The notes below the pieces were generated by a model. It saw nothing but the letters and a program-made list of their open reading frames with translations, was not told the origin of the DNA and did not search any database. DNA of 64,000 nucleotides from Styela clava (Eukaryota), in assembly GCF_964204865.1 (NCBI RefSeq), contig NC_135250.1, forward strand, positions 11,284,001 through 11,348,000. The letters are read 5' to 3'. Of the stretch, positions 34,401 through 62,800 are shown one piece after another. The translations under genes were made by a program, and so were the position numbers. How positions within the stretch are numbered: the stretch's first letter is position 1; each line of letters starts with the position of its first letter.

Positions 34401-37400
34401 TTCTGTTGGTAGCGTGAAAGCAGGATTACTTTCTCCAATGTTATTTACAGCCTTGACTCTAATGACATACTTCATACCAGTAAGGAGCTCTTCGACCTTG
34501 AATCCAGTCTTCTCAATGAGCCGGCTACATAATTAAAAAAATTATGTATTTCAAGTCCAAAACATGGCATATTCAACAAAATCTCTCCATTACTCAAACA
34601 TTTCTACCTACCTATTGCATGGAGTCCATTCTTTGTGACCTAGCTGCTGTTTATCTACCATGTAGCCTTTTATGGCAGAACCACCATTCGTCCTGGATGC
34701 ATTCCACTTTACCAAAAGATAAGTGTTCTTTTTTTCTACAACTCTCAAGTACTCTGGACGACTAGGTACATCTGTCAAGCAGAATATTTTTTATACAATA
34801 TGTAATTAATATTCAATAGTTATAAGGTTATCAAATAAACCATACCTAATGGATCTTCGCAAAGCACTGGAGGACACTCGACCCAAGGTCCTTTTCCAAC
34901 ATCATTTTCAGCACATATTCGAAAAGCATAAGTACAGCCCACAACAACATTGCTTGCTTCAACTTCAAACTGCAAAGATAAAGTCAGTATCAGTGGTCTT
35001 ATTGGAAAAATCCTTCTTCGTTCAATCTATGCAAGGTTACTCTATATTTCTATAAAAACCATATACAGTGATGAGTCACTAAGTTAAATATAACCGATTA
35101 GTATTTTATACCTTCTCTGTGTCCTTGACTGCTAGCCATGCTTTCATTGATGTGTCACGTTTTTCAATGAAGTATCTTGTAATAAGCAGTCCTCCATCAT
35201 CAGATGGTACTCTCCATGACAATGCAACAGATGATTTTGTAATAGCTCCAGTTTCGAATTCCTGAGAAACACAAATCGATTTAAGCACAATAATTCATAT
35301 TCACAAATTTTTAAAATTTAGTAAAAAAGTTACCTTGACAGGTCCTGGGACATCAAGTACATTCACCAGACAAGTAGTAGTCTTGGTTCCACAGACATTC
35401 TTAGCGGTTACTGTATATTGGCCCCAATCTGAACGTTGGCACTTTTGAATTCTCAATAATGAACCTGTAAGATAAATGTTATCATTTGAACAGTTTCCCC
35501 CTCTTATCTACCGCAATTCAATAAATACAAATCATTGACTTGCCTTTTTCGGAATTTACAACTTCAACATGAGATGGTAGAGATTCAGAATCCTTTTGCC
35601 ACGATATTTCAGGTGCAGGTCTTCCAGTAACATTGGCCATAATTTCGATCATTTTACCACTATGAACTGTAAGACCATCAGCAACCCCCGCAGCCAGATC
35701 AATGTGTGGGAGATCTGGAAAGCAAATATGCAACACATAAATAAAAGATAAATCATAGTGATAATGATATTTTATTTACTGGGCTTACCAATTTTTTCTT
35801 TAACAGTAACTTCTATTTCAGCAGGTTTGCTTTCACCAGCTCTGTTGACAGCTTTCACTCTAAAATTACATACTTGGCCTTCTTCTAATGAGGTAATAGT
35901 ACAGCTTAATGCTGTTATCTTCTTTTCAAAGCACTGTTGCCATGACCCATCTTCAAGCTGCCTTTCTACTTCATAGAAGATGCGTGAATCACCCCCAGAA
36001 TAACTTGGTAATTCCCATTTGAGAGTTACAGAATTGTTGGTGACATCAGTTACTTTTAGGTGACATGGAGGAGCAGGGACACTAGCTGGATCTTGACAAG
36101 TGAAAAAATCACTTTCAGGGCTGAAGTTTCCGAGACCGGCTGCATTTTCTGCACAGACTCTGAACCGGTATGATGAATCCTCATAAAGGCCAGTGATAAC
36201 CTGAAGGTAATGAATATCACATGCTTGAAAAGTTGCTACTTATCTCAAAAAATTAATTTCAAAATTTTTTTTTACTTGATATTCATTTGTTCTTATCAGG
36301 TCACGAACAACTCTTGTCCACTTTCCAGTTTCAATATCTTTTCTTTCCAAATGATACCCGAGTATAGAGCTTCCTCCATCATTAGGTTCATTCCAGTTTA
36401 CGAACATAGCTTTACGTGTAACATCTACAACATTTGGCTTTTCTGGTGCACCTGGTTCATCTGCAAAGGAATTTTCTCAAGTAATATATATTCATTTTGC
36501 CACACTTTGCCTTTCATATATACCAGTAAGCAAGTTTATTTACCAAATGCCATTTTTGCCACATAAGGCTCAGATTCCAGCCATGGTCCAACTCCAAGCT
36601 TGTTTTCTGCAGCTACTCTAAAAATGTATTCTGTTCCTGTCACAAGTTTTTGTGCTCGCCACCTTGTACATGATATTGTCGCGGACAGTGTAGACCAATT
36701 CTGAAAGATATAATCAGATTATTTAGTTATATAAATATAGTATATCAAATTATTTTTATCGAGTAATCAAGAACCTTCTTGTTTGATTCTCTGACTTCCA
36801 CAACATAATTGAGTATTTCAAAGCCTCCATTGTCAGCAGGTGGCTTCCAGTAAATGGTCACTGCCTCTTTGGTGGAATCTTCAAAAGTCCATGGAATAGA
36901 ACAAATATCTGGAACATCTGAAAAGACAAAAAGTTATGAATATTAAACCAGTAAGTAGTGACAGTAATTAGTAACTTTGCTGTTCCGTGAAACACTGAAA
37001 AATACTAACCAGTCACAAAAACTTCGACAGACGCAGTGGCACGACCTTGTTCATTTTCGAGACAAATAAAGTATTTCCCTTTATCAGCTCTTGTGCATGG
37101 TCCAAGATGAAGTTCAACTGTGTCGTCAGTTGTCTAATAACAAACAAAGTCGGTGTTATTATTTGAATAAGGTATCATATACTGAACAATTCAAAGTTAC
37201 TAACTTTCAATATTCTTGTTGGTGTGCAAACAACATCAGTTTCTTCTTTGTCATATTGCACCCATCTTATTGAAGGCTTCGGAACACCAGAATATGTTGC
37301 AGTTAATGTGAGTTCTGCACCTCCACGAACTTCTATACCTTTCTTCAAATGAGAAGCAAAGTGAACGGTTGGGGCAGCTATAAAGAAAAAATAGTAGGTA

Positions 37401-40400
37401 ATGAATCTGATAAAATCTGATAAAATCATCAACTTAAGATCGTATAAATGATACAAACCTATAGGATCCTTAGCTGCTATTGGAGGAAGTTGTGCAGGTT
37501 CACCTACACCTGCTTTATTCTTTGCATAGACTCTGTATTCATACTCTAGTTCTGGCGTCAGATTTTCAACAGTGTATTCAGTGTTAGGATAGTTATCAAT
37601 GTCTCTGATCCAATTCGATCCGTCTTTTTCAGTGAAATCCACACAATATCCAGTAATAATGCTTCCACCATCATGAAGTGGTTTCCGCCAAGAAAGAGAT
37701 AATGTTTTGGATGTTGGTTCGCTGTATCTCAATTCTATTGGTGCAGAAGGTGGAGCTACAGGATTCATTGCTGTGACAGACTCTTTGAGCACCGCTGGAG
37801 ATCCACAACCAACTTTGTTGTATGCAGTAACCCTCAAGTTGTAAGTCTGGTTACGAATTAAGCCATCAACTTTCCAAGTAGTTTTATCTGTGTTATGTGT
37901 TGCAATTTTCCAGGTTCGACGTCCAACTTCTCGTCTGAATAAATTCCAATCATATTATACAACAAATATGAATGAACAAAAAAAATATGGGTTCAATTTC
38001 AATTATTATGCTTACTTTTCAACAGAATAATACATGATAGCACTTCCACCATCGTCTGTCGGGGCTTTCCATGACAGCACACATGATTCATTACATATAT
38101 CACTGACGATAGGTTCTTCTGGTTCACCTGGACGATCTAGTACAAAAAATTCATAATTTTCAGAATTTAATATTATAAATAACTTATAGATAACATATTA
38201 TTAACAGATTCTTACCAATCACTACCACATTACAAGTCTTCAAAATGGTTTCTATTTTGTTCTCGAGAATAATTGAGTATTTTCCACCATCATTTTTTGT
38301 TACCATAGGTATGAATAAAGATGAGACATAACCAGTTACGGAAGTCTGGAAAAAAATTGCGTTATTTAAATACCCAGTAAAATTAATTCATTTACCGAAT
38401 GAAATTCCAACTTACAATTGCATTAGATGCCAGAGCTTTGTCATTAAGATGCCAAGAAATAGCGGGTGTTGGTTTTCCTGTAAATGGAACCTTCAGTCGC
38501 AACTTCTCTCCAGCAATTAGAATGATATTCTCATCAAGAATTGTGCAGGTTGGTGCACCTAGAACATGAGTCAATGATTGGTATCTTGAATGCATTTCAA
38601 GTACCGGTAGTTTAAAATAAATAAAACTAATACTCACAATCAGGATGGTCAACTGAAATCTCTTCAGTTGCCTCACTTGCTTTGCCTAGTCCAGCAGAAT
38701 TGTAAGCACAGACCCTAAAATTATATGAGCGTCCTTGACGAAGACCAGTTATCTGTAACAAAATTGAAAATTATTAATTTGATGAAAGGTTTCAAAAATT
38801 CACTTAATTATTCAAAAATCACAAGTTGTCTTATAATTACCTCCCCTAACGGTTCGGAGAAAGGCACCACATTGCAACGTATCCACTCTTCTCCTCCAGC
38901 CAGACAACGTTCGACATAGTATCCCAAGATATCATCTCCACCATTGAGAGATGGTATACACCATTTAAGAGTAACAGATGATATGCTTGTTGTCACCATT
39001 GTAACATTAGTAGGTTGGCCAGGTGGTACTGAAATAAAAAGGAAAATTGTTGTCAATTTTCTGTGGATTTTCTAATAACAACTAATTTATACTTTCTGTA
39101 ATTAAAAACTGATGTGTACTCACATATAGGATCTCTGACTATAAAATTCAGTGTTGGTTCACTTGGTTCTCCAGAACCCGCTTCATTTATGGCAATAATT
39201 CTGAACTGAACTTCAGCGAATGGCTCGATTTTTTCGCACTGAAAAAAAAATTGAGATCTATGAAGCAATGTTCGAATTATATTTATTTATACATATACAT
39301 GAAAACATTCAACTACCTTGTATTTACATGTTGCATCGTTTGTCCGCTCTACCTCAACCCATTGCTGTTGTCCTGAGACATTTTTCTTCTCAATACTGTA
39401 ACAAGCTATATCAGCTCCACCATCAAAGACTGGTTCACGCCAAACTAAATCAACATCATAACGAGATACACTGGTCGTTCTAAGTGATCTGGGTTTTCCT
39501 GGAACACCTACAATTACATAAAAAAAGAATTATTTTAATGTTACAAGAAATAGAAAAAAACATTGTGTATTGAAAAATATACTTACTGTACAAGCAAGCA
39601 GCTGTCACAGCTTTGCACTGATTCCATTCACTTTGCCCAATTGCGTTTACAGCAGCTACTCTGTACTCGAAAGAAGAGCCCTCCTTCAGATTATTTTCGG
39701 TGTATTCAGTAGATTCAATAAATACAACATCTTGCCAATTTTGTCTTCGCTGTTCTCTTTTTTGCAAAACATATCCTGTTATGCCACAGCCGCCATCATG
39801 ATCAGGCATCATCCACTGAAGTGTGACTGACGTTTTGGTGGTTCCGGCACTTTTAAGTTCTCTTGGGGAATCTGGTGCAGTTACTTTAGGCTTGCAAGTC
39901 ACAGTATCAGATTCTTCACTTGTGATAGATTGACCAGCTTTGTTGACAGCATAAACCCTGAAATTGGAAATATTATCGTTAGAGCAAATGCTGCAGAGGA
40001 AGTAGTTCCAAGAGAATAGAAGATCACAACACTTCTTACTTGAAGCTGTATTCATATTTCTTTGGTATTAGATCAACAACTTCATGTTCATTAGTCTTAA
40101 CATTAGCTTCCCAAGTAATAAAATCTTCTTTCCATTCATTGGCACCAACATCACGTTTTTTCAACAAAATGACATAATGTGAAACAGGGCATCCACCATC
40201 CAATTCGGGTTCACTCCAGAATAGTTTACAGCTAGTTTTGTTTATCTAAAAATACAAAAAATACAATTAAAAATCAAATTCTATCAAGCATTTATTAACT
40301 CTTATTGGGATAAAAACTTACCTCAAGAAGAGATGGTTTTCCAGGTCGGCTCGGTGGCTCAATAGGACTGATGGCCATCACCGGCTCACTTGGTTCACTT

Positions 40401-43400
40401 GCTTTACTAATTCCAGCAATGTTTTCTGCAAGGACTCTGCATGCAAGAATAAATGAAGAATATACATTGTTACATAAACCAACCTTTTCCCTATACCAAA
40501 AATGGGAACGTGAATGCTGAGAATAATTACCTGAAATAATATTCCTTGTCTTTCTGAAGACCATCAACATGATAGGAAAATGTTTCAGCATCCAGTGCTT
40601 CATTATTCAATCTTATCCAGCTACCGTCAGATCCTGCTCTCATTTCAACATAATACCCACTTACAACCTTTCCACCATCTGAACGAGGTTCATGCCACAT
40701 AACAGTCATAGAGTTTTCGGTGACGTCACAAACGTCAGTCGCATCTGGAGGGCATGGTGCACTAAACGGATCTTTTGCTACTACACCGGTGGTAGAAGCA
40801 GGCTCACCAATGCCATATTTGTTTACAGCAGAAACCTGAATTTCAAGTATAAAAAGATTTAAACCCAAATAGAATTATGAATGTACAGAAACATGGCTGT
40901 AAACTATCAAGAATCTGAGCCCAGTTCATATATACCCCAAAAGTTAATTGCAAGGTGGTTTTAACACCCAATACTTACTCCAAACTCATATTCACGGCCA
41001 TCGAAAAGTTCAGTTGCCTCGTATTTGAAGACATCAGACTTAACATCCGAATTAATTTTAGTCCATTTTTTACGTCCAAGTTCTCTACGTAGCATTACAT
41101 AGCCATTGATGTCTGCACCGCCATCATCTTCCGGAGCAATCCAACTAAAGCTACAGGTTTTTGCAGTTACGTCTTCCACATCTGTAAACAAGTTTATTTT
41201 TTTATGCATCTGATTATACAAGAATGACGAAAAATCTTATAGTATGTTACCTATGCTCAATGGTGGACCAGGTTTATCAAGAACTTCCACTTTACATTGA
41301 GTGGAGACTTTTCCATGTTCATTTTGTGCTATGACTGAATAATCACCTCTGTCATCACGAGTGGTCTAAAAAATGTTGCATGGTTAAACACTGTTAGAAC
41401 TACAGCATAAAAAAACGCTAAAAGCTAACTAACCTTTAGAATTCTAAGTATTGAACCAGTTTCAGTTGGGTCAACAACTAGTTGCTGGTCAGGAATGACT
41501 GGTACATTGTTACATGTCCATCTGATGACTGGGGCCGGCCGTCCAGTCACCTTTGCAACAATGTCAACAGGTTCACCAGCTCTTACAGTTATTCCCTCTC
41601 CAGCCCCATACTCAAGAACAACAGTAGGTAAAGCTGTAAATACAAGTTAAAAATTGTGGTGAAATGATCTCAAGAAAATACTACAACAATTGAAATATTA
41701 AAGTTTTAGTGTGTTAACCTTTTTCGTCCTGCACAAGGATGTATTCAGTTGGTTCTGAAGCCTCACCAGATCCTTCTTTGTTAACAGCACGAACCCTAAA
41801 CTGCCAGTTCATATCAGTCTCCAAATCTTTGACAACAGTTTTTGTTTTAGGTCCATCAGTAGAATGATCGAACTCATATTCATCATCATCTTCAGTTCTT
41901 ACCTCGATGATGTAATCTATAAAAACGTTAGTGGGTGTGTATAATATTACCGTTTTAATTTTATAAAATCAGTTGAAAAAAAACACTCACGGATGATCTT
42001 TGCCCCTCCATCAGATTCCGGTGATATCCAAGACAAAGTGACGGAATCCATTTTAACATTCGAACAAACAAGATTTGTTGGAGCATTCGGTGGTTCAATA
42101 GCATCCTCAGCAGTAATAGGTTGAGACAATTCAGAATAAGGTCCTTTACCATAAGCAGTAGTAGCACAAACACGAAAAACGTAAGTTTTGCCTTTTCGGA
42201 GATCAGTTACACTGCATTCTTCAACAACTGATTCTGTGACCTTATTAACAAAGCACAAAACAATTATTATTTGTGAAACAATAATGTTAATAGAAAGTGC
42301 TGAAACGTCAACTTACTTTAGTCCATGCTTTTCTATCGTTTTCTCGCTTTTCAACAATATAAGCAGTGATAGGTGAACCGCCATTATCAGAAGGCGCCTC
42401 CCACGATAGGTAAGAGGAAGAAGCAGTTACTTCACTGGTTCTCACATTAAACACTTGACTGGGCTTGCCTGAAAATACATGAAATATTCAGCATCCATGA
42501 AAAAGAAACAAAAAAGTCGAGATTTATTAAATACAACTTACCATATACAGACACTGTTAAGTGGCATACAGCTTCACCTTCTGGATTCTGAAGTACAAGT
42601 TTATAGTCACCAGCATCGACTGTTCTTGCGCTTGATTTGATTCTTAACAAAGCATATGTAGATCCAGATTCCAATTCCGTTCTATCATCTCTTTTGAGAA
42701 CTTTTTCATCTCTAGATCTAATCCACGCAACAGTTGGAACAGGAGCTCCAAATATTGGCACACGAATGTGAATAGTTTCTTGCTCAACGACAGTGATATG
42801 ACGCTTTGTCTCATCTAGGCTGAAACTTGGTGCAACTATAAAAATGCATAACAGAGTTAATCAAATTGTTCGATGTATAGCCATGATAAAGAGACATAAG
42901 TATATTTATAAACCTGATAAGTCTTGTGCTGTCACGGGTGGAGTTTCATCACTGGATTTTCCAATTCCTGCTTTGTTTTGAGCTTTAACACGAAATGAGT
43001 AAGTCTGGCCTTCTGTCAAGTCTACAATGGCATGTTTTGTAATCGTAGGTCCCGTAATACGAGCTACAGTTCTCCATAGAGCTTTATCGGCAGATACCTC
43101 ACACTCTTCAACCATATAGCCAGTAACTGCAGAACCACCATCGCTAACAGGGAAAGACCATGAAATATCGATACTGGATTTTGTCGGATTCTCACACACA
43201 ACTTTTATTGGAGCAGAAGGAACATCTGTAAAAAGTAATTTCAATCTCGAATCTGGAATTCAACAACAAATACGATATCTGTATTCTATATTGAGAGAAA
43301 TCAGAAAAACAGTCAGCAATTCAAATTCAAAAATTTTATAGTGGGAAATAACTTGCCGATTGCATCTTCAACGAGAATTAATGTCGTAGGTTCACTATGT

Positions 43401-46400
43401 TTTCCGTTTCCAGCTTTATTGAAAGCTAATACCCGGAAATAGTATTGGCGGCCTTCGACAACATCTGGTTGACATACTCTAACTTCATTTTCGCCAGCTT
43501 CAGTTCTTACGCATTGAGTCCAACTAGAAACATAAAATTAACATTTTTAAATTAAGATTGTTTTATAGTTGTGTCACTGTTTCACTAAACTTACATTGAA
43601 TCCATTTTTCCTCTCATTTCAACAATGTAACCTAGGATTTCTTCACCACCATCAAATTCCGGTTTGATCCAGTTTAGAGTAACATGATCACATCTTATTT
43701 CGATAGCTTTAAGAAATTTAGGTTCTTCTGGTGGACCTGTAAATAGTTTTAAATCAGTGGCACATCAACAATGAAAATGCAATGGATGTATTTCACTAAG
43801 TTATACTCACCATATTGTGGTTTCACCAGAATAGGATTCACCAGTTGTACGGGTTGAGATAACCCAACCCTATTCTCACATGAAACGCGAAAAAGGTAAC
43901 TGCTACCTTCAATCAACTTATTGACCTAAAAATTAAAATATAATCACTCATTTGATTAAATTGTCATCTTATTGAGGTCTCACAAAAGTCAGAAAACTTA
44001 CAGTTATTTCAGTGTCTTCAACATCATCAGATACACTTTGCCACATTTTCCTTTTGATATCTCTTTTTTCTACCAAAAACTTGGTGATCGGGCTTCCACC
44101 ATCTTCTTCAGGTTCTGACCATATCAGTGATACGCTTGATGAAGTCACTTCAGTGACAGTGAGATGGATCGGAGATGATGGCTTACCTGAAAAGTGATTC
44201 AGTAGTAAAACAGGACTATTTCTACCAAATTTAGATTTGAACGGCAAATAAGAAGTATTTCTTACCAATCACTAACAAGTCAAATTTAGCATGTGATTTT
44301 CCATGCTTATTGGTTGCAGCAATTTGATATTTTCCAGAATCTGAACGCATTGGCTTACAAAACATAACTTTAAGTTGTTCATGCTCTATTTCCAAATATT
44401 CATCATCCATTGGCAGTAGTTGGTCTCCAACCTCCTATAAAATCAAAGTTGAAACAGAGTATGGGAAAAGTTTATTAATGTAATCACCTCATTCAGCATT
44501 CCCACAAACCTTATACAATTGATATTTTGGTCTGGGTATTCCTTTGCATTGGACAGGGATGATGATGCCTCCACCAGTATGAGCGGTCACATTGTCATCA
44601 GGTACGAAAAGTGATGGTGCAATTGCCAAATCAATTATTGCTTTTGTATAAGCATTTTGTGTTCGAGATTTTACAACATACTTCCCTCTATCTTCAGTGT
44701 TGAAGTCGAGGATTTCCAGAATGTGCTTTTTGCCCTAATAAAAAAAGAAATAAATTGTAATATGTTTTAAACTCATAATGCAATGTGTTTAATTCATACA
44801 CAGCCTTTCGAATGAGACATTCACCCAACCAACTTGTGTACAGGTTTTCTGACATAGTTATATAGTTAAGTTTTTAAAATTTTACCCCATCAGAAATCCT
44901 TATGGTTTTTCTACGGTCTTCTTTGATGCGGTCTCCATCGAAACTCCATAAGATATCATTTGAAGGCTTGTTGAGTTCGCAAGTAAGAAAAACTTTTGAT
45001 CCAGGTTGGAAACTGCAGTCATATAGTTTCTTCACAAACCTTAGTGGAGCACTTGTTATTCTAAGTTTTGTTGAGCATTCATCATCACCAAGACGACAGG
45101 TATAGATTTTCTGTGAATAGGAATATCAAATAGTTTAAAAAAAATTTTCATTATTCATTTCCTAATCTGTATACCGTAATTCATCTGCCAAGTATTCGTT
45201 CATACCTCATCACAACCAATTCTCACATCGTCAATAACAAGACTGCGAAGTTTTCCAGATGCAATTGCTTGAATTCTTTCACTGCCTCTGCCAAACAACA
45301 ATGCCTTTCCATCAGCCAGCCATTGTACATCACCGCCTAGGGTTGAGATTTCAACAGTAAGCACAACACGGCTTACTTCTTCAGCATCAGTACTATTACG
45401 GAGGCGTTTCGTAAATATAGGTAGAGCTTCTGACACGAGCAACTTCGCTTGATATTTGCTGTCCATAATCTAAAAAAATTAAATTAATTATGCAACTGTG
45501 TTCAAACGCTTTTGCCTTAATTTTTATGTGTGAATTACCTGTGCACCTATGACAGAATAGTCATCTTTTAGAGTGCAATGTTTCAGCTCAAGTGAATACT
45601 TCTTGCCTTCATTTATCATAACAACGAAATCGCTTGCACTGAGTTCCTCGCCATTCTTTGTCCATGTGATCTGAAAGTTATATATTTTTTAATAAAAGGT
45701 TATTCAAGCAACCTATACAATGTGAAATATATATATACATACGCACCTTAGCTCCAGCTTTGTTGGAGGTGCATTTGAAAATGGCAGATTGATTCTCACG
45801 AACATTTGCATCTTTTGGACCAACATCAATAGCAACTGGAACAACTTCCAGCAAAGCACAGGTTCTCTGATCAGCACAAACTACTTCAATCTTTCCATTG
45901 TCTACCAACTCAGCTGGCATAATTTTCAAAATACGATCTTTATCGTTAGATGTAATATGGAATCGTTTATCACTGGTGATTTCAACTCCATTGAGTAACC
46001 ATGAGACTGGATATATTGCTTTGCTGACTTTACATTGAAACTGTATTTCATCACCAGCACAGCACCAAATATCTTCAATTTTTGATGTAAACCCAGGTGG
46101 AAATTCTGTGCCACAAAAAATGTAAATATTTAAATAAAATAAAAAAAATAAAAAAAATAAAAAAAAAATAAAAAAAAAATAAATATTATTCAAACATAAA
46201 AATGAATCAAATAAAGATAATTCAAACATTTACCTTTCACTGTAAGAAATGCGGATGTTTCAGTCTTTTCTCCAATTACTTTATTTGTGTATTTGTTGGC
46301 TTGAATCAGTTGAACGTCATCTAGTAGAAGACGACGAATAACACCATCAGCAACAATGATGATCTTGTCTGTCTCTTCAAACAATTTACCATTACAGAGC

Positions 46401-49400
46401 CATTCAACCTGAGAAATTATTGAACGTTAATAATATCGACTAATCCCTCTCATACGAACGAAGTAATACGAAGTCATAAACAAACATAAAACAATTGACA
46501 ATTACCTCTACATTAGGCCTAGAAACTTCACATTCCAAAATAATGTTGTCAAACTCTGTGCAAACTATATCTTGTAGAGGTGTGGCATAGAAAGCTGGTG
46601 GCCAATCAACCCAGAGTTTAGCTGTGGTTTCCACATCACCCACTTGACAGGTAACAATAGCTCTGTAATAAGCATATTTTCATGGTTAGTCGTACAAAAA
46701 TTAAACTGAAATTATATTTTATTTACATTGGTGCGTAATACTAACCTGTCTACTTCAGTACAATCTTTGATTGTTAAGGATCTTGTTTTATAATCGTCAG
46801 TTATGACATATCTTCCAGTTGAAGACATCTCGACTTTGTTCTCACCAACAAACCATAGCACTTGCTGGTCCCGTGGTGATACAACGCAGGAAAGGAAAGC
46901 AGTCCCCATATGAGGGACTGATAAATCTTTTAAAGGTTGTAGAACTGCAATTGGTGCTTCTGCAAAATCACACACATATTGATGTTACATGAAACCAAAA
47001 ATAAATCTTGAATTAAAAACCTGAATACAATAAATACCTTCAACAGTCATAGATGCTTCAGTCTTTGCAAATCGAGCGGTGACAGAATACAAACCAGCAT
47101 TACTCATGGCTACAAAAGGGATAGTCAAAGTTCTTTTGTTTCCTTCAGCAGAACTTATGACATCCTTGCCAATTGGAAAAGTTTGACCATTAAGTCGCCA
47201 TTGAACTGGCACATCTTCTGACAGAATACATTCAAGTGCAACGGAATCTTTCTCAAATACTTCAGTGGCATTCAGTGGCTGAACAAACTTGATGCCATCT
47301 ATATACATTAGAAAAAAATCCATAAGTAAGAGCCTAAAAAGAAATCAGTAATCTAGTGTGAAAAAAGTTACCTTTAACTGTGATTTTTCCTGTAGACTTT
47401 TCATTTCCAGACTTACAAGTGTAAGATCCTTTGTCACTTTTAGTAATGTCTTTTACAACAAGTGATTGAGATTTTCCAGAAATGACAAACTCATACTTGC
47501 CACTTTGTTCATTCAATTCCTTGTTTTCTTTGAACCATTTTACGCTCCCAGAATTCCTATTTTTAAAAATATTTTGACATAGCTTAACAAGCTTTAATTT
47601 AGATAATATAATATACAAATACATAAATTATTTGGAGTGGTAACAATAACTTTAATTCTAGGCAAGATTTCTTGTCACTTACACCCAAGTGATAAGATGG
47701 CATAATCACTATTGTAAAGCAATTTGATACAACCTTAATAAAGAGCATTTCTTGTTAGTAGTACCCGTTTCAATGTTATAGGATGCGAGAGATTAAAAAC
47801 GAAGTTATTCGTATAAAACATACTTGTTCATGCCGCAAGTTAACGTAGCGGAAGGCTGTCCCTCTTCTGCAATAATATCAGAAATTTGTTGAACAATCTT
47901 TGCTGGCTTCTGTTTGATGCTCAACTTAGCAGAAGAAGAAACTTTTCGAACGTGACATTCAATTTTTCCTTCATCTCTGACCTGTGGAATCAATGTTAAA
48001 TTTTTATTTAATCGAATGCTTTATTGTTCATGCAAATTTGTAAATCATTTTCTACCAATGCTTACCGTACAGTTCTTGACTAAAAGTTGTAACTTTTTCC
48101 CATTATGTGTCATTTGATATTTTTCAGACTGTTTGATGATTTTGTCATATTGGATCCATTCAGCATCAACCTCTTTAGATGTATTAATTTCACATGACAA
48201 GCATGCATCTTCACCTTCTTGAAATGACACAGCTTTCAGTGGTTTTGTGAAAGTAATTCCAATTTCTAAAAAAATAATTAAGTTGTTATGAATGAAGCAT
48301 ACTTTCACAACAATGCAAAATACGATCAATGAAATGAACAAGTACAACATTTATTACCTTTCACAACAAGTTTTGTCGACGTCTTGCTATCAACACCATC
48401 ACATGTCCAATCTGTGTTGTCTGCCATAGTGGTCTTGAAAATCACTAAACGCCGCAGAACACCTTCACTTTCAATCTTATACCTACAAATAATGAGGTTC
48501 ATTAGAGATGTGTCAGAATTTGGTTTAGCAAAGCATTAAACTGCTATAGCTTACTTTTCTCCATCAGAAAGTTTATCATTTTCTCTATACCATGTTACAA
48601 TTGCATTTGGTCGACTAACTTCACATTCCAATGCTACTTTGTCCATTTCTTCACATGTTTTAGTTTTGAGTGGCTTGGAAAAGTGCACTGGCGGTTCTGA
48701 AAAATATGTGAAAATATTTCAGTTTTGTTCACTATTCTAACTAAAACCAATGTCGACATACCTATTACGGTCAATCTGGAAGTTGACTCTGCAGTTTTAG
48801 AAGAAAATCTGATGACAGAGGTGTCTGATAATTGGCAGTTATGCATCTTCAATGTGTGTCGCCTGCCTTCTTCCAAAATTTCAATGAAATTTCCCCTTTT
48901 GAGCTTAACATCATCTAATGAAAATGAAGTAATAAATTGAAAAAACAATTCTACATATAGATTTTTCAGTGCATGAAAATCATTTTATAGCAATACCTTT
49001 ATACCAGAAGTGAGGTATGTTGTCATAATTTGTTTCGACAACAAATTCAGCAGTGTTCTTTTCAATTACTGTAGTATCACTCATTGGTTTGACAATTTCA
49101 ACAGTGTATTCTGAACAGAATTATCATTCATTAATTAAAGTAATAGAAATAGCACAGTCTTTAATATAACAAAACTAACCTTCAACAGATAATAGAGCAC
49201 TAGACTTCTCCTCCTCAGCGTGAGCTGAAATAGTAGCAGTGTCATCATCCAAATCGACACTATGAATAACCATCCAGTGTTTATCTCCATCACTCCCAAA
49301 ATCAACATTTTTGGTCCTGCTCATTTTGGCACCATTTTTGAACCATGAAACCTCGACGTCTTTGTGTGAAAGAACTATTTCAAATCGAGCTTCATCTCGT

Positions 49401-52400
49401 TCAATCACTTTAGTTTCTTTCAATGATTGGATGAATTTTATTTCTCGAGCTGTGGAAGAAATTATACAATTTTGGCTTTTTTTAACAAAAACATAAAAGA
49501 TAATAAAACTAAATCATATTAAAAGATATTCGCTTTGTTTTCTAAATAAACAAAAGTCGATGGGATGGTTGAACATGTATATCATACTAAGTACTTGATT
49601 TTTTGAGTTTATACATACGTGCAACAGTCAGTTTTCCATAGGTCCTCACATCATCAGCATCACAGATATATTTTTTCTCATCTTCAAATGTGCATTTGTG
49701 CAATATTAATGAACGTTTGCAACCCTCTGCTACGATAGTATGCTTTTCTGAAGCCTGGATTAAAGTACGGCCTTTGTACCAACGTACTTGAGCAGATTTT
49801 CTCGATACCTTGAAAATATTCAACAAATCAGTTTTAACATTAAAACAAATGTTGCAATAAATCAATTATTAATCTCACCTCGCATTCCAACTTTGCGTCC
49901 GATGTTTCTTCAACGATCACATCTTTTAGACCGCATACAAACTCAACAGGAGGCTCAAGAACTTCTAGGCGTGCAATAGATGAAGCACTTCCTGCTTTTA
50001 TCTCAACTCGACCTGACTGTTGAGCAGTTAGATGGCTCAATACAAGCCTATGTTTGCGTCCAATTGATTTAATTCTGCAAGAAAATTTGGGCGAATTATC
50101 ATATTGAACTTCTAAGAATGACAGCATTACGAGTAGTATAGATAGCAGAACAATTACAAGTTATCAGAGTATGATCCTGAATGCTTTCAGTAATAGAGCA
50201 TTGAAACAGATCGAATGCTGTTAGCACAACCTATCTTACTAAATAGATAGTATACTTATAATTTTAGTGCACTTATTCCACTTACAAGACATTTTCGGAG
50301 ACTTTCAGAAGAGTATCATTCAGAAACCAATTAACATTAACTTCATTGTGAGAGACCTCGCATTCGAAAGAAGCAGTCCCATCTTCTGGCACTTCAATTT
50401 CTCGCAATTCCTGACGAATTTTGATGCCACGTTCTGAAAAAAAAAGTAAAAACGACACTTGTATATACTCAAAATTACAGCGCAATTATCGATGAAATAA
50501 ACCATACCATCAATGCTCAGGTTGCATCTGGTTTCCACTTTTTCACACTTGCATGAATAAAGACCTGCATCCTGTTCAGTAACTTTAGTTATAACTAAAC
50601 GACGCCATTTTCCTTCAGTAATGATTTCAGCATGTTCTGAAGACTTCATTTCAGCACCGTTTTTGTACCATGTCACTTTTCCAGACTGCTTACTGAGCTC
50701 ACAAGATAATTCAGCAACATCCAGTTCCGTAACACTGGTGTCTTGAAGCTTTTTGGTGAAACGAATGCCTGATTCTACAAAAGAAATGATTGTGAATAAT
50801 GAAGAACCAGATCAATATGACAACAACAAAAAATAACTTGTTCAAACATACCATTTACAGTAATATTTGCCGTGGTTTTCATGCCAATTGCAGCAAAATA
50901 ATATGTTCCGGCATCATCAACAGTGATATCATGTAGTATGAGCGATTGTTTTGTGCCTTCAGTTCGAATTTTGATAGACTCTGATCTGGTTAGCTTTTGA
51001 TCATTACAATACCAGGAACCTATGTATAAAGAATGAAGAAAATTGTTGCAGAAGTTTGTATATTTTGCTTAAAGACACAGAAAAATCGTAACATACCATG
51101 AACATTTGGCACACTCAAAACACATGATAAAGTAACAGTGCTGCCTTCATCAAATATTCCATCTTCCAGCTTATCTAAAATTTCTATCTCAGATGAGTCA
51201 ACAATTAGAGATGTAGAATCCTGAAAATTGAGTCCATTGATAAATCGCATTAGAGTATTAAAACTTATGAAGTTCACTAAATTAGAACAAGCACAAACCT
51301 TCAAACCACAATCAGTTTCAATTGAAATTGCGCCAGCATCTTCAAGCGTAACATCAGTAAGAGTCAAAGTATGCTCACGCCCATTTTTTGAAATTTTTAT
51401 GACATTGCTGTTTTTCAACTTTGCACCTTGTTTGTACCATGTAATATTGACATCTTTATGGGACAATATGCAATGAAAAGTGGCCTCTCCACCTTCGCAA
51501 GTGCGTACTTCTTGAAGACTTGATTCCACTTTTGCTGAAAGTACATAATTTTTTATTATTATTCGAATGCAAACACATCATTAGACTTTCAAGATAAATA
51601 CTTTCAACTTCCTTACCTGCAGAATCAATTGGCACACATTTGTATGTCGATTGATCATCTGGTGATATATAGTTCACAATCAGAGAACGCTTACAACCAT
51701 ACGACTCCAATCTATACTTTTCACTTTCGCGAATTTCAACAGTGTCATTCCTGTGTTTCAAGAGAATTTTGAAATTGTTTCAGTTTTGTTTTTAGAACAG
51801 ATCGTAACAAACCAGAATAGCTATATATCATTAAGATCACTTGTGGCAGCAAGCTTAGCATCTTCAACCACAGGATTTGAACCTGTGACACTGAGCATGT
51901 CAACGTCCCACATCAATCAAACTCGTAAACCCAGGAAAAGTAATGCGCATATTCACATCACATATATCACTATATACTGACCATTTGACAATCGTTACCA
52001 CAAATAACCACAAGCAGAGTTTAAAATGGAAATAATAAATGAAGATGAGAAATAGAATTCGAATTAATTATCACTGGTCTTTGCAACAGAAGAATGGCTC
52101 ATGAAACAATGCGAAATTGTCTTTTTTATTGTACAAATGAATGCATACTTGAGCCATTTGACTTGAATGTCTTCCCTTTCAACTTCATAATCAAATTTTA
52201 AACTTTTTGGCACTTTTGTATCCTTAGCGACAGTCAGTTTTGCTTCACCAGTTCCAATAACTTTGTCTTTGCAAGACTCATCATCAGACTCTGATCTGAT
52301 CAAATCTGCCACTGAAGAATCAATGACTTCATACTTTATCACACCAGCCTGAGAAACTCGCAGGTTGTGAAGTTTGAGAGTGTGTACATTTCTGAGGAAA

Positions 52401-55400
52401 GAAAGATGGATTATATTTTTAAAAGACATTTTAGACGAAATAATACTGTTAAGTTTAAATTGATAAAAAATAAATCACCCTTGCTGGCTTATTTGGACAT
52501 TTTCTCCATTTTCCAATTTTTTTCCATCAAGATACCAGATGAGCGTGGTTGAATCACGTTGAGTTACCACTTCAAATGAAGCAGCACCACCAACATTCAC
52601 CGACTTATCTTGGATTCCATCTGAATAGATAATAAAATAATACATATAAAATTGTACCGTAATTATGAAACAATAACAAGTACTTGAACCTAATATATCG
52701 ATGCCATAATTTCCTTGATTTAAATGAGGAATCAAGAATATTTTTTTTTATTACAACAGACCCACCTTTGACAATCAATAATCCTGTTGTGGAACTTTGA
52801 CCGGATATACAAGTATACTCTGAAGAATCTTCACTGTTTGTTCTTTTGACAATCAGGGATCGTTTTCTTCCGTCTTCAATCAACTTGTATCTGTGATAAA
52901 AATATACAATTATTCGATTTCAATGCAAATTACTGATTCCAATTTTAAAAAGTATTAGGTAATTTCGATAATCACATACTTGTCAGTTGCATTCTTTAAA
53001 TCAATTGGTTCTCCATCCTTGTACCACGTGACTCTAGCGTTGACATCTTTAACTTCACATTCAAAGATTACAGTCTCCATTTCAGTACAAGTATAGGTTT
53101 CCAAACATGCAGAAAATGCTTCTGTGTTTTCAATATCCAACTGAGCAACTTTTTCATAATTTAGTTCTTGCAATTTGTCCAAATCATCTAAATTTGAGCA
53201 ATTCAATGATTATAAAAATGTTATTCATGATAAAATTTATTTCAAAAATTATTTTAATACTGCATGTCCATACTATGCAACTTGTAACAACATTCACATA
53301 CCTGCAACACGTAGTCTTGCTGTAGATGAATAAGGTCCAGCAACAATCCTATAGCGAGATGCATCGCTGAGATCCACATTCGAAATCTTCAGTCGATAGA
53401 TGTCTCCATCTTGAATTATTTCGAATCTTTCACTGGGTGTGACCTTGCGATTTCCTTTGTACCTGAAAAAGTAACATAATAAGCTTTAAATTTTTTTGAA
53501 AAAAGGGCTTATTGACTTGATTATAGATTCTTCAAATTATACTACTTACCAATTCACTTCGATTTCTGGTACAAACATCTTTAGTTCGGCTAAAAACTCA
53601 ATATCAGTGCCTTGTAAAGCATTGATACTTTCAAGACCTCTAATCTCTTTGACGGGTTCAGTAACAGACAAGTTTCTCTGCATAAAACTAAGCAAATCAC
53701 CGGCATCTGAAGCATCTTGACAAACGGCAGCTAACAATTCTTCATCTTCGATCTGAAAATTCATCATTGGTAATGATTATACTTATTAAGTGTGCCCATA
53801 ATAAATTCACATAAGTTATATGTGTGCACATAATAAATTCACATAGGCTATTTAAGTGTACACATAATAAATAAATTCACATAAGATTATATTTATTAAA
53901 TGTGCACATAATAAATTCGCATAGATTGAATTAACTAAGAGTGCACGTATTAAATTTAAATAGATCATATTTAATAAGTCTTAACATAATCAATTCACAT
54001 TTCAATTTGTCAAAAAAAGTCATTATGATATTGGCTTACCTCTTGGCTTTCCTGATATCTTGACAAAGTAGGTTTCAAGTCCTTAAGATTGTAATATCTA
54101 GCATATTTTTCGTATTCTTTCGGATCAACTTCTCTTAACAATTCCATGATTTCTGCAATATCTTCACATTTCACACCTGGTTTGTCATTCGCTGATACTC
54201 TGAAAAACCATATATATTTATTATTTTCACATTGAATGCAAACCAAATGGTATGCTCAAAAAATAAAACATACTTTCTAAGTTGTTCCGGCTCAAATTTC
54301 TCCTTAACTACATGTTCTGTAACTGTGACTTGGAAAGATGAATCAACTTCCCCATGTTTGTTTGATGCTACACATCTGTAAGAAGATAATGTTATATTTT
54401 ATGCAATTTCATCATATTTGGTGAAAGAGTAAAATCAGCACAGATTTCATGCAGGAGACGATAGATTTTAACCAAGTTTACTTGCCTCGCACACAGTCTC
54501 AAGTAAAAAAACTGGTAAAAAAACGCAATTTCTAATCTTCTTCCTTCTAAAAATATACCTGTATAAACCAGTGTCTGGGACATCTAGGTTTGTAACTTTC
54601 AATGTATAAGTATGGGCTTCCTTGTTGTGAGACATTTTAAAACGTCCATATCCGTTAATCTTCATCCACTTTCCTTTCGTCCAATGAACAGTTGGTTCTG
54701 GGTTTCCGAAAACTTTTGCAGTAAACACTGCAGTGTCACCTAAGAAGAGATTCCCATAAGATAATACACGTATTTGTAGATTTTCTTATAAAACAACAAT
54801 ATTATTTGTTCATGATATAGACAGCACTGAAATTATGTGCCCAGATAACTGATGTTCCAAAAGTCAATTACTAGATATTTTGAAGATTCGACTACATACC
54901 AGTAATTTTTGCCTGATCTTTGGGTTTTCGGACAAAAACAGGCAATGTAGCATTCGGATCTACTTCCATGTCATCGCAGGCATCTTCGGATTCACTGGAA
55001 GATCCACGTCGGTCGTCTATGAAAAGTGTGAAGAGAAATTAGAAGCAAATAACATTTAGGATACAGTTATATGAACTCTTCTACTTTTGGGGAATAATTG
55101 AAAACAATAATGGTATGAAAAGTCATGACCTCAAGCACTGCATCGAATTAACATAAAAGAAACAAATATCGCTACACTGTTATTTATATTTCCAGTTTTC
55201 GGCCTTTTGAATTTAGAAAATTTTACATTGGTCCAGGCAATATTTTTACCATAAGAATTTTCGTAAATTGGATTTTTTGTATATAAGGCCTTTCGTACGT
55301 AGAGTTTATACTGTATATGTACAGGAATACATGAAGAACATCATGCGGTTGCAAGAGTTTGCCCATATTCTTGCTCCCATCTTCCGTGGGGTTCGAACCC

Positions 55401-56080
55401 ACAAACTTACGTAAAGTGCTCGTACTTGAAGGTAGGCACAATATACAAACCTTCAAATAATGAAAATGAACAATGCCATCTCGGCGGTGTTTCGATCGGC
55501 ATGTAATTTTGAAACACGGGATGCAACTAGTTCGTTAACAACTTACATTTTGACAAACAGACGCGGCACTTCGTCTCTCCGTTTTCATTGTCTGCAAAGC
55601 AAACGTATTCTCCGTAATCGCCCTCACGGACACGGGACACTGTAAGGACGTACTCGTCTTTCTCCTGATCCTGGTATATAGTAATACGCCCATCTTCTTT
55701 CATTGGTTTACCCTAATCAGAAATTGGAAATAATTAATCATAAACCACGAATGTTATTGCCAAGCTGATGCAAAAACATCAGCGTTGGGTCTCAGAATTG
55801 CTTTCCTTCCAGATAAATAATTTTAGTGTTTTGCAAACCTGTTTCAGCCAGATAACCTGCGGTTTCGGACTTCCGGTGATACGACTGCTAAATTTGATTG
55901 TTCCTCCGAGTTTAGCGCTTCTTCCTCGGGGCTTCTCTACGAATTCTGGGGCAACTCCTGTTTGATCATATTAACATACAATTAGACAAATGACTACGTC
56001 AACTATACAATTTAGTAAAAGCTGACTTAGTTGTTGAAATAAAGTTAACCTTTAACTTCGGTAGATGAAGCTGGATCCAT
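1..56080 (-). CDS. ttn: Titin/connectin-like giant muscle protein (multi-exon; 3' part outside window)
   Basis: Nearly all minus-strand ORFs are Ig-I-set or Fn3 fragments (W..P..DGG..IT.Y.VEKR, Y.FRV.A.N..G, G.P.P.V.W.K, D.G.Y) bounded by GT/GC-AG sites that join in frame. The N2A module and the Ig-Fn2-Ig-Fn3 / Ig-Fn2-Ig-Fn3-Ig-Fn3 super-repeats are diagnostic of chordate titin. Confidence 0.95.
4500..8925 (-). CDS. ttn: Titin C-zone 11-domain super-repeat 3
   Basis: Ig(EEPAFDLDADLRRTL)-Fn2-Ig(YRPSVDSH)-Fn3-Ig(ILPRVEFD)-Fn3; boundaries approximate. Confidence 0.88.
8926..14405 (-). CDS. ttn: Titin C-zone 11-domain super-repeat 2
   Basis: Ig(ESPKFNLDEDF)-Fn2-Ig(IEPTFDLS)-Fn3-Ig(EPPNVALE)-Fn3; boundaries approximate. 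Confidence 0.88.
10241..10740 (-). mobile_element. Probable retroposon (SINE/LINE 3' end) remnant in the 917-nt intron 10143-11059
   Basis: GC/CpG-richer block inside an AT-rich intron. On the minus strand it ends in AATAAA followed by a short repeated tail (ACTACTGATA twice). The 5' limit is uncertain. Confidence 0.5.
14547..19635 (-). CDS. ttn: Titin C-zone 11-domain super-repeat 1
   Basis: Ig(EEPEIILDAKF)-Fn2-Ig(ECPVIKLP)-Fn3-Ig(VAPAIVLD)-Fn3; boundaries approximate. Confidence 0.88.
16301..16394 (-). other. GC-AG intron
   Basis: CTA G|GCAAGT...ACAG|TT joins KQEL to VAPAIVLD in phase 1. Confidence 0.8.
19636..38558 (-). CDS. ttn: Titin D-zone: six 7-domain super-repeats (Ig-Fn-Fn-Ig-Fn-Fn-Fn)
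   Basis: By manual exon joining, repeats begin at about 38558 (APTCTIL), 35716 (DLPHIDL), 32415 (EPPSICM), 29605 (EAPVANF), 26724 (DAPVIQP) and 23440 (EKPAIFL). Confidence 0.87.
19950..20294. mobile_element. Degenerate hAT-like MITE in a titin intron
   Basis: TIRs CAGGATTGTGCAACCT and AGGTTGCACACCCCTG (14/16 match); no clear TSD; accounts for most of an enlarged intron. Confidence 0.75.
23547..23702. repeat. 78-bp tandem duplication spanning an exon 3' end and its splice donor
   Basis: Copies at 23547-23624 and 23625-23702 differ at about 5 positions. Confidence 0.95.
35465..35543 (-). other. GC-AG intron
   Basis: AAA G|GCAAGT...ACAG|GT joins VNSEK to GSLLRI within an Ig domain. Confidence 0.8.
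38638..44186 (-). CDS. ttn: Titin I/A junction: Fn3x3-Ig-Fn3x2-Ig-Fn3x6
   Basis: The first Fn3 contains EKRDIKRKMW, close to ERRDIKRKTW as I recall it in the first Fn3 of vertebrate titin. Six consecutive Fn3 domains lie at ~41279-38638. Confidence 0.85.
43226..43356 (-). other. GC-AG intron
   Basis: ATC G|GCAAGT...ACAG|AT joins VEDAI to DVPSAP in phase 1. Confidence 0.8.
44266..53187 (-). CDS. ttn: Titin I-band tandem Ig segment (~21 Ig domains, distal-Ig type), no PEVK
   Basis: Repeated F.K.L.D..V.E...A.F.CE.S....V.W.K.G......K..I...G..R.L.I motifs; no Pro/Glu/Val/Lys-rich exon found. Confidence 0.88.
46130..46183. repeat. (A8-10T)n low-complexity intronic tract
   Basis: Read directly. 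Confidence 0.9.
51855..51935 (-). mobile_element. tRNA-derived SINE-like head in a titin intron
   Basis: T-arm/B-box CACAGG-TTCAAAT-CCTGTG (51887-51869) with a degenerate A-box-like GTTTACGAGTTTG upstream; no acceptor stem. Confidence 0.5.
53302..55016 (-). CDS. ttn: Titin N2A-like element: Ig80-like, UN2A helical insertion, Ig81-like
   Basis: Exons 55016-54900, 54739-54559, 54375-54274, 54199-54040, 53752-53550 and 53462-53302 encode FTAKVFGNPEPTVHWTKGKW..GLYRCVASNKHGEVDS..EIMELLREVDPKEYEKYARYY..LLSFMQRNLSVTEPV..PEIEVNWYKG. This matches the vertebrate N2A sequence as I recall it (WTKGKW; DIMELLKNVDPKEYEKYARMY; SFIQQRLSQTEPV). Confidence 0.9.
53785..54000. repeat. Intronic minisatellite, ~5-6 diverged copies of a ~30-40 bp unit
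   Basis: Repeated core GTGCACATAATAAATTCACATA. Confidence 0.85.
55370..55505 (-). mobile_element. tRNA-like T-arm / SINE-like structured element in a titin intron
   Basis: GTGGG-TTCGAAC-CCCAC (55402-55386) plus hairpins TTGAAGGT..ACCTTCAA and ATGCCG..TGGCAT; no complete cloverleaf. Confidence 0.45.
55547..55957 (-). CDS. ttn: N-terminal Ig-I-set domain of the titin-like gene (exons 55957-55839 and 55712-55547)
   Basis: VAPEFVEKPRGRSAKLGGTIKFSSRITGSPKPQVIWLKQ|GKPMKEDGRITIYQDQEKDEYVLTVSRVREGDYGEYVCFADNENGETKCRVCL; canonical splice sites; not listed in the ORF track. Confidence 0.88.
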
Positions 56081-56135
56081 TTCCTCTGAGCTTCTTCTAA
56101 AACTTTCTTAAAACTTTCTGAAAACTTTTTTAAAA
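56050..56135 (-). other. ttn: Putative first coding exon (5'UTR plus MDPASSTEVK)
   Basis: Acceptor TATTTTCAG at 56136, ATG at 56080 with an in-frame TAA 10 codons upstream, and a phase-1 donor at 56049 compatible with the next exon. Confidence 0.7.
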
Positions 56136-57111
56136 CTGAAAATACAATAAATACGGCGTTGGTAGTATTGTACCGTGAATTCTAGAGAACCAGCAATTTG
56201 ATTAGACGAACTTTATAGATGATTAACGCCACGTAACCATGGATTATTTAATAGTTATACATAACAAGAATACACAGAATTGTGACAATTATATAATACA
56301 CGTACCAGAATAACTAAAAATTCTTCAATGTTCTTGGCAACGTTATCTTGATCTTTGCTTGATCTGATTTCGTTTAATCGAACAGTAACTTTGAAAAAAT
56401 AAAATAGTTTGAATATCCTGAAATCACATGGGATGAATTAAAAGCCCACACGAACACGGCGCTATAGATGCATTTTATTTAAATCTACCATAAATGACCA
56501 CCTAAGTGAAATCCAAATACAGCGTTATGTGCCGTGGACGCGTATGTAAAATGGATGCAAAAATATCGTTATTCCCAAATACTTTTGCTGTCAGTAAAGA
56601 CATTCTCTGCTATTTAATGATCGATTGTATTTAATTATTCCCGAGAAGAAAGCTGTGGCCTCCATTTCAGCAATAAAGGCTGCAACAATATATTTATTTA
56701 TTCAATCTTTTTAATGCAAGTTCGGCACGAGATATTCTATTTATGCCGTTTAAATGTTGTTGGGCTTCATATTAGGTTTTGCAATGTCACAAGGTATCGT
56801 CAAATCGACAATGCTTCAAGACCGTATGACCGAAATATTCTAGGATCACGAAATTTTAATCAATCCCAAACGGCATCGTTCCAAGAGCAATTCCTATTAA
56901 AATTAGCGTAAATCTTATTTTGAATCGTGTATATATGCATGAACAAATATTCAAATGATTGCAAATATTACATGTTCAACGAGTTCGAGTATGAGTTTCC
57001 TAAACGAGATTAAATAATTTTTCGGTAATTTTTCGCCGAGTGAGGTCGTTTTTGTCACTAAAACCTCCTAGTTACGACCACATAACAAAATTCTTGAAAA
57101 TCTGTACTCAC

Positions 57112-57142
57112 CTGAAGAGAATATAAAAGGCTTTTTTGTGTG
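57112..57142 (-). other. Candidate non-coding 5' exon or (trans-)splice acceptor region of the titin gene
   Basis: Strong donor CAG|GTGAGT at 57111, preceded by a pyrimidine tract; upstream acceptor-like TTTTCATTTTTCATAACTTAATCATTTAG ending at 57143. Confidence 0.5.
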
Positions 57143-57590
57143 CTAAATGATTAAGTTATGAAAAATGAAAATTAAAGAATTAATATGCATAAAAAATGAA
57201 CAATCGAATAAAATTACAACTCCTCAACAGTCTCGTAAAACCTAAACAGCTATACAACGTAGATTAACCCTCTACCACACAGAGTGTACGAAACTCACTC
57301 GCTAAGCACCGTGTTAGGGTCACAGACTGAACTTAGCGATGTACATGAAAACCCAACTCGGCTACATAACGCTTTCTGGAATATTCCCTTTCGTCCTATC
57401 TATTTACTAATTTAAATGAAACCAGTTTAAAGTTTCATTACGATATTCCACAAACACGGCGAGCTGGCGTATACAACAAATGATACAAAAATCCAAGCCT
57501 CACTCTAATAAATCCTAGTCGTCCTTCATTATTGTCACCTCATAATTGTCAGCGACCTAGACAAGCGAAGCAGTGAAGTAAAATTGCAGA

Positions 57591-62482: not shown

Positions 62483-62800
62483 CAGGGCTACTCAACTAGC
62501 GGACCGCGGTCCAAATCCGGACCTTTCGACCATTTAATTTGGACCGCGTCTGCTTATATATTTTGGCAATATAAGTAACGTTATAAAGTTTTAGATGACT
62601 TTGATACGATTTAAATACGCAGCTACCGATGTGCAACATTTGTGTCCATATTTGTGAGCCATTCATTGCTCTTGTATTTAATTTAATATTGCATTTGAAG
62701 TCTCGTTTATTCAAAGAAATAAATTTTCTGTAATGTCCGGACCCCAGTAATTTTGAAGTTTTTTAAACGGACCTTTGGTGAAAATAGTTGAGTAGCCCTG
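62483..62800. mobile_element. hAT-superfamily MITE (318 bp)
   Basis: Perfect 16-bp TIR CAGGGCTACTCAACTA/TAGTTGAGTAGCCCTG, perfect 8-bp TSD GTATATAT (62475-62482, 62801-62808), subterminal GGACC repeats, no transposase ORF. Confidence 0.95.

Follow-up and report, generated by a model that had tools for sequence, protein, structure and literature searches.

The window analyzed here is a 64,000-nucleotide stretch of the Styela clava genome, positions 11,284,001 to 11,348,000 of contig NC_135250.1 (C1, or G000:C1, in genome-level coordinates). Its minus strand holds the 5′ part of a titin gene in which a spliced Ig80–UN2A–Ig81 module (the N2A module) spans window positions 53302–55016. The original prediction had placed a UN2A tri-helix, represented by two peptides, between two Ig domains of an apparently invertebrate titin. 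The source is a tunicate, an invertebrate chordate, and the minus-strand translation contains both of these peptides, the helix-bundle peptide in the exon at 54199-54040 and the second in the exon at 53752-53550, flanked by Ig80-like (exons 55016-54900, 54739-54559, and 54375-54274) and Ig81-like (53752-53550 and 53462-53302) domains. Exon borders were obtained by fitting the database protein P0001 (XP_039268744.1, Styela clava, 1459 amino acids [aa]) to the window, which gave 27 exons with 10 differences over 1452 aa; at 98% identity to the bundle exon it is the nearest database protein. Its label, “obscurin-like,” is misleading, as P0001 is the N-terminal 1,459 residues of the titin paralogue described here. 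The introns of the module agree with joints in RNA-type contigs (four of four runs, from two studies; 15 of 27 joints among those listed). The RNA status of these contigs is guessed from the data, none being recorded as RNA, and their joints back only the 5′ 8 kb of the gene. The features of the gene within the window are as follows.

57112..57148, minus strand: exon 1, non-coding, the apparent 5′ end of the transcript; contigs of three of four runs end at 57135, 57137, and 57148 without a loose end, and the fourth reaches 11 letters into the exon.
56306..56388, minus strand: leader exon 2, non-coding, spliced in four of four runs.
56050..56135, minus strand: start-codon exon, with the ATG at 56080 and an in-frame stop shortly upstream; same start as the P0001 model.
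55547..55957, minus strand: a lone Ig ahead of Ig80, in two exons (Pfam I-set); on C16, which carries a second titin gene, it matches the Ig immediately ahead of Ig80 best (48% identity).
54274..55016, minus strand: a short acidic linker and the Ig80 orthologue, over three exons that extend into the first part of UN2A; elephant Ig80 is the best match, at 38/90 identical residues, with the only other close copy at C16:6189622.
54040..54199, minus strand: the UN2A tri-helix bundle exon; 7NIP is the best PDB match and AlphaFold predicts three helices.
53550..53752, minus strand: the UN2A C-terminal segment, the linker, and the first half of Ig81 including a long BC loop (10/19 and 6/16 versus elephant).
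53302..53462, minus strand: the second half of Ig81; the whole domain is 38/90 identical to elephant Ig81, and human I81 is the best match.
53188..53301, minus strand: a 114-base intron at the site expected for Ig82, Ig83, and PEVK exons, none of which is there (P0001 exon fit; one RNA-type contig joins Ig81 to the next exon and is long enough for no more than the Ig81 exon).
44269..53187, minus strand: a tandem run of ~21 Ig domains of distal-I-band type (20 in the model plus 1 that the model overlooked and the DNA contains); they match distal Ig domains of fish best, rather than I82/I83.
1..44268, minus strand: the A/I junction and the A-band Ig/FN3 super-repeats; the gene extends beyond the window to ~G000:C1:11242141 (kinase near 11247300, four M-band Ig domains, and stop).

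Several comparisons identify the module. Searched against the PDB, the bundle exon has the human UN2A core, 7NIP, as its top match (E 2.4e-8, 37 bits), followed by MyBP-C bundles (E 0.001-0.08, 17-22 bits), and residues 325-413 of P0001 match human Ig81 (5JOE, E 4e-17); the second UN2A exon, used alone as a PDB query, gave no significant match. In two AlphaFold predictions of moderate confidence (pLDDT 66 and 69), the bundle comes out as three helices, and a Foldseek search returned 7NIP at the top, weakly (E 0.52). Among all Ig domains of an elephant titin fragment, Ig80 and Ig81 are the best matches to the flanking domains. On the Pfam tri-helix-bundle profile THB (PF18362), the window bundle scores 17.4 bits, under the cut-off of 25, whereas the C16 copy passes at 31.7. 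Judged from these alignments, the module is a true Ig80-UN2A-Ig81, in that order. The intron between the two UN2A exons (window 53790-53990) carries a degenerate AT-rich tandem repeat of ~28-33 bases.

The degree of conservation was measured against elephant titin (P0004), fish titin (P0002), human I81, and human I82 and I83 taken from 7AHS (chain P0105). Identity to elephant, for the window copy versus fish titin, is 38/90 versus 64/90 in Ig80, 18/36 versus 31/36 in the bundle, 1/17 versus 8/22 in the acidic linker, 10/19 versus 8/19 in the C-terminal segment and linker, 38/90 versus 61/90 in Ig81, and 6/16 versus 13/16 in the BC loop. The third helix of the window bundle is altered, and in the bundle core the C16 copy, at 22/36, is closer to elephant than the window copy is. 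The module had been described as strongly conserved; all of its parts are there in order, but the bundle identity and the sub-threshold THB score call for a qualification of the adverb. The alignment yielded counterparts of Ig80, UN2A, and Ig81 and none of Ig82 or Ig83, which the original prediction had not recognized by eye. Human I81 scores 195 on the expected window domain versus 137 on the next best, while human I82 and I83 reach at most 125-126 on domains of the window gene, not above their scores on fish titin without them (142-152). The Ig domains that follow Ig81 resemble fish distal I-band domains. On C16, the best human I83 score, 163, falls on a domain far behind the PEVK and is near the background of 152; that Ig82 and Ig83 are hidden behind the PEVK there was considered and rejected, as the 39% match to elephant I82 is no better than that to fish distal Ig domains.

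The genome has two titin genes, a full-length one on C16 and a shortened paralogue in the window. A THB search of the genome gave five matches: three above the cut-off (on C3, on C1 at 4.55 Mb, and on C16), the window copy below it, and a noise-like fifth. From their translations, we take the C3 gene (C3:4045054) to be MyBP-C-like and the other C1 gene (C1:4554094) to be IGFN1/IGSF22-like; the C16 match is a second titin-type N2A. The genome has two FN3-rich giant genes and two titin-type bundles, and the top fn3 matches of the genome lie mostly in these two loci (best 150 of 779 candidates scored). Both genes were modelled, from sequence reaching 200 kb beyond either end of the window and from 400 kb of C16, with a scripted gene finder; of the 26 exons used to tune it, it found all 26. 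The C16 gene encodes Z1Z2-like domains (the first Ig matches the titin Z1Z2 structures 2A38 and 1YA5), a proximal Ig run, long E/K/V/P-rich segments, N2A, a 757-residue E/K/V/T-rich segment directly after Ig81, ~25 distal Ig domains, 132 FN3 domains, a kinase, and an M-band, for ~34,000 residues counted from Z1. The window gene encodes one Ig, Ig80, UN2A, Ig81, ~21 Ig domains, 132 FN3 domains, a kinase, and four M-band Ig domains, for ~21,400 residues (2.4 MDa) over 98 kb. After correction of model slips, both genes have six 7-domain and eleven 11-domain repeats; in the window gene, ten of the latter are exact and one has an Ig that the model missed and the DNA holds. Apparent A-band differences between the paralogues (two Ig domains missing, one extra) proved to be gene-model errors. 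In the M-band of the window gene, the kinase is followed by three Ig domains, an insertion, and a fourth Ig, and the later M-band Ig domains of C16 are absent.

Obscurins are Ig-only arrays without titin A-band repeats. The “obscurin-like” fragment is followed, without a break in the reading frame, by a titin A-band and kinase, and its obscurin-like matches reach 22-28% identity versus ~50% per domain to C16, so an obscurin identity was rejected. A MyBP-C or IGFN1 identity was also rejected, since separate genes for those exist elsewhere in the genome. The window gene is classed as a paralogue of titin rather than a full-length titin, and the original prediction had missed that it is a shortened paralogue beginning at N2A.

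The window gene starts one Ig before Ig80, and the Z-disc anchor, the proximal Ig run, and the PEVK spring are absent. Across 464 kb including the gene, all open reading frame (ORF) matches to Ig (122) and FN3 (196) fall within its bounds, and the upstream 200 kb is without Ig ORFs. An apparent match of the C16 N terminus 50 kb upstream came from a spurious model segment and is not an Ig. The RNA-type contigs add two non-coding upstream exons, ending at 57135-57148 in three of four runs; once spliced, the leader contains no ATG, and three stop codons interrupt the reading frame that the start codon sets. No second copy of Z2 at the level of a paralogue was found genome-wide (best other match 36 bits, versus 64 bits for the Ig80 paralogue), and Z1Z2 was found at C16 only. 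PEVK-rich minus-strand segments are absent from the region of the window gene and number several in C16; since Ig81 is directly followed by the 114-base intron, the PEVK is also missing from the interior of the gene. The gene has seven-helix membrane ORFs on its upstream side and unrelated genes downstream. We are highly confident of this architecture, that is, of the start, the domain order, and the missing parts.

The two genes are closely related in layout. Of the 210 modelled domains of the window gene, 204 lie on collinear offsets with C16, the other six being the three Ig domains that follow Ig81 and three in the A-band, and 242 of 292 aligned introns share position and phase. On average, A-band domains are 55% identical and I-band domains 49%; Ig80-UN2A-Ig81 is like other domains of the gene in this respect (47/90-48/90). 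By these measures, the window gene is probably the product of an old partial duplication at the DNA level. A profile search with the bundle returned 62 proteins, including vertebrate-type bundles and a titin of Ciona savignyi (P0041). In the third-helix region, P0041 is closer to C16 (26/34, versus 21/34 to the window copy), and another protein, P0037, is clearly of window type (28/34 to the window copy versus 18/34 to C16). The paralogue is thus likely not confined to one species. The 19 of the 62 matches that were looked up by name included no amphioxus or echinoderm record, and among 120 listed of 203 homologues there was no named tunicate titin, vertebrate obscurin and OBSL1 being returned. 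Because Ciona savignyi titin carries the same bundle, the N2A core, at the level of sequence, predates vertebrates, a modest point on its own.

Both Styela titin kinases (C1 ~11247300-11247700 and C16 ~6068500) have canonical AAK and DFG motifs, whereas the vertebrate titin kinase is described with the pseudokinase motifs MAK and EFG (PMC4042850). This suggests that the kinase was inactivated after the tunicate-vertebrate split. In the C16 gene, spring-like sequence lies mostly ahead of N2A, unlike in vertebrates: a 4,200-residue unique segment, largely P/E/V/K-rich, is upstream of N2A (C16:6212000-6226000), and the 757-residue segment after Ig81 occupies C16:6182700-6186200. The Z-disc region of C16 has two IQ calmodulin-binding motifs (~6277500, L073:7375-7599; Pfam IQ, 50 bits) at the position where vertebrate titin has Z-repeats. 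Searches for the Titin_Z and Telethonin families gave no match, with the controls silent too. Directly upstream of the C16 titin is a multi-exon helical-repeat-like gene (C16:6295000-6330000) with no Pfam match above cut-off and only sub-threshold spectrin; a CCDC141-like reading, expected from published synteny, is unsupported by Pfam.

As to function, we lean toward a reading in which the N2A module is the tip of the protein and likely an N-terminal thin-filament tether, perhaps in unstriated body-wall muscle, rather than a hub for MARP proteins. The A-band repeats would scaffold thick filaments and set their length, as those of vertebrate titin do, and without Z1Z2 or PEVK the protein would be unable to act as a Z-disc-anchored spring. 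The Ig-bundle-Ig end of MyBP-C binds the thin filament; N2A, which the deletions on either side left intact and which now forms the tip, would bind in the same way. The cut fell immediately ahead of N2A, which nevertheless persisted through ~45% divergence; the module would therefore seem to have a job at the free end. Ascidian body-wall muscle is reported to be without sarcomeres (PMC6589888), and six body-wall families of contractile isoforms are reported to have arisen by duplication from paraxial ones (PMC5888912); it would therefore be a natural home for a titin free of the Z-disc. The odds that N2A acts as a tether independent of MARP are about even. The most specific version, a dedicated mini-titin that styelid, perhaps all stolidobranch, ascidians evolved for sarcomere-less body-wall muscle and that has a full thick-filament ruler and a probably active kinase, has its anchor and spring deleted, and grips thin filaments through N2A without MARP, is tentative and has less than even chances of being right.

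Several points weigh against this reading. Expression in the body wall is a guess by analogy, as apt to fail as to hold. Whether vertebrate N2A binds actin directly is disputed: certain constructs do, others only with CARP (PMC8305307). By alignment, the window bundle is the more diverged of the two Styela titin copies, which would also fit relaxed constraint. As a mark of the transcript start, the contig ends are a weak hint, with no DNA run as control, and a rarer longer transcript is possible. The gene models are the analysis’ own, and the gene finder missed two Ig domains and split one. Finally, another of the bundle proteins, P0039, is ambiguous at the third helix (22/34 to the window copy versus 23/34 to C16).

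The original prediction took the module for a MARP-binding core that predates vertebrates. On that view, the module was kept because a tunicate MARP (ANKRD1/2/23-type) binds it and links titin with actin, as the vertebrate proteins do; we consider this unlikely. The CARP interface in vertebrates is described as comprising the central helices, the linker to Ig81, and the BC loop of Ig81 (PMC8305307). Compared by region and not by residue, all three are recognizable in the window gene and none is intact (18/36, 10/19, and 6/16 versus elephant). The BC loop equals that of the reference in length, and the C-terminal segment and linker are kept as well as in fish, both of which would suit a MARP hub; the loop sequence, less than half as well kept as in fish, and the altered third helix do not. 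Genome searches with three degenerate motifs gave 4, 0, and 4 matches. Six of the matching loci were read and look like other ankyrin families or non-coding DNA, with no MARP-like gene among them; two repeated loci lie beyond those six. These results suggest that the genome may lack a MARP gene. Its ankyrin genes, on the other hand, are many (152 matches, best 150 of 424 candidates scored) and unclassified. The MyBP-C-like and IGFN1/IGSF22-like genes have this bundle too, so it may have been conserved for reasons other than MARP binding. A zebrafish MARP study is confined to vertebrates in what it covers (PMC6155536). The main calpain-3 site (Ig83-PEVK) is absent from the window gene. Of the predicted pre-vertebrate MARP-binding core, the N2A core stands, through the Ciona savignyi bundle, and MARP binding, with an interface partly kept and motif searches that turned up no MARP-like gene, is putative.

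Similarly improbable is a counterpart, at the level of genes, to vertebrate Cronos: the short gene would work together with full-length titin in the striated sarcomeres of tail or heart, supplying further copies of the A-band scaffold, and N2A would be a passenger or structural cap. Cronos is likewise described as a Z-disc-less product with distal Ig domains, an A-band, and a kinase (PMC4720518). An A-band ruler of the same pattern as that of C16 would suit thick filaments of equal length, and the greater divergence of the window bundle would suit a passenger. However, Cronos is an isoform: an internal promoter of the single gene TTN places its start past N2A, in the distal I-band. The window gene is a gene of its own, and its start precedes N2A. 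Its PEVK and several Ig domains after Ig81 were lost internally, yet Ig80-UN2A-Ig81 was kept at the identity to C16 given above, and without the later M-band Ig domains, normal anchoring at the M-line is less likely. Very improbable is that the short form is an artefact, either with its 5′ half elsewhere (mis-assembly, a very long intron, or a split gene) or as a haplotype copy of C16: the database model is a mislabelled fragment, the upstream reading is limited to 200 kb, and the contig-end evidence is weak, but ~55% protein identity rules out a haplotype copy, the in-frame stops lie within leader exons spliced in four of four runs, there is no orphan Z2, the PEVK was also lost internally over a 114-base intron, and unrelated genes stand at both ends.

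The reading of N2A as a thin-filament tether at the tip of a shortened titin may be set against known systems. Vertebrate TTN N2A (Ig80-UN2A-Ig81-Ig82-Ig83; 7NIP, 5JOE, and 7AHS) has the same order of Ig80, UN2A core, C-terminal segment, and Ig81, and vertebrate titin has the same six 7-domain and eleven 11-domain A-band repeats, kinase, and M-band Ig domains; these A-band repeat units have been described (PMC8553726). Unlike TTN, the window gene has no Ig82, Ig83, or PEVK, a shorter acidic linker, an AAK/DFG kinase, and an M-band that ends after the fourth Ig. With the ascidian connectin/titin type, to which C16 belongs, it shares collinear domains and introns, as well as the bundle present in Ciona savignyi P0041; it differs in lacking the Z-disc part and the elastic segments and in lying on another contig than C16. 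A study of urochordate connectin describes an elastic I-band and an A-band, with no second gene mentioned in the text available, and the supplements available are without mention of Styela (PMC12198301).

MyBP-C (C1-M-C2) and IGFN1/IGSF22 share with the window gene an Ig-bundle-Ig cassette near the N terminus of a thick-filament Ig/FN3 protein. The likeness extends to sequence, with the MyBP-C bundles in the PDB search and clusters labelled IGFN1-like in an atlas (score 0.94-0.95), but the window bundle is of titin type in its bit scores and is followed by a whole titin A-band. The Ig preceding the bundle in the C3 MyBP-C-like gene has the W-x-KGKW motif of titin Ig80, a pointer to a common origin of the cassette. 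Twitchin and projectin, as described, resemble the window gene in being separate genes for the C-terminal part of titin (PMC4720518, PMC12198301) and in having a canonical kinase (PMC4042850). By those descriptions they are set apart from it, as the window gene derives by duplication from a chordate-type titin with 132 FN3 domains and vertebrate-type repeats, and the likeness to twitchin would be convergent. Full-text literature searches, covering titles and the starts of abstracts, returned no report of a second ascidian titin or a tunicate N2A; Hanashima 2012 (Ciona) may bear on N2A. Of most interest is the Z-disc-less, PEVK-less titin paralogue beginning at N2A; a pre-vertebrate N2A may already be in print.

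Directly upstream of the titin gene, also on the minus strand, are two tandem intronless ORFs (window 59845-60780 and 63274 to just past the window end), each of ~310 aa with seven predicted membrane helices. Neither has a Pfam match; they look like receptor-like duplicates. A high-copy repeat at window 62470-62810 has a contig depth of hundreds to thousands and many loose ends in four of four runs. By the look of their translations, we take the downstream neighbors (C1:11230000-11236000) to be maspardin (SPG21) and XRCC1.

Whether titin N2A engages thin filaments directly or only via MARP is in open dispute (PMC8305307). The window gene encodes a naturally occurring titin that carries N2A at the free end, lacks PEVK and Ig82/83, and has no detected MARP, beside a full-length paralogue as control, so that the question could be tested with two short fragments. 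The gene also hints at a vertebrate-type thick-filament ruler that works without a Z-disc anchor, which would bear on Cronos and on how unstriated muscle evolved from striated muscle. If the reading as a dedicated body-wall mini-titin is true, the ancestral job of N2A would be a direct link to the thin filament, and this Z-disc-less titin would parallel twitchin and Cronos by convergence.

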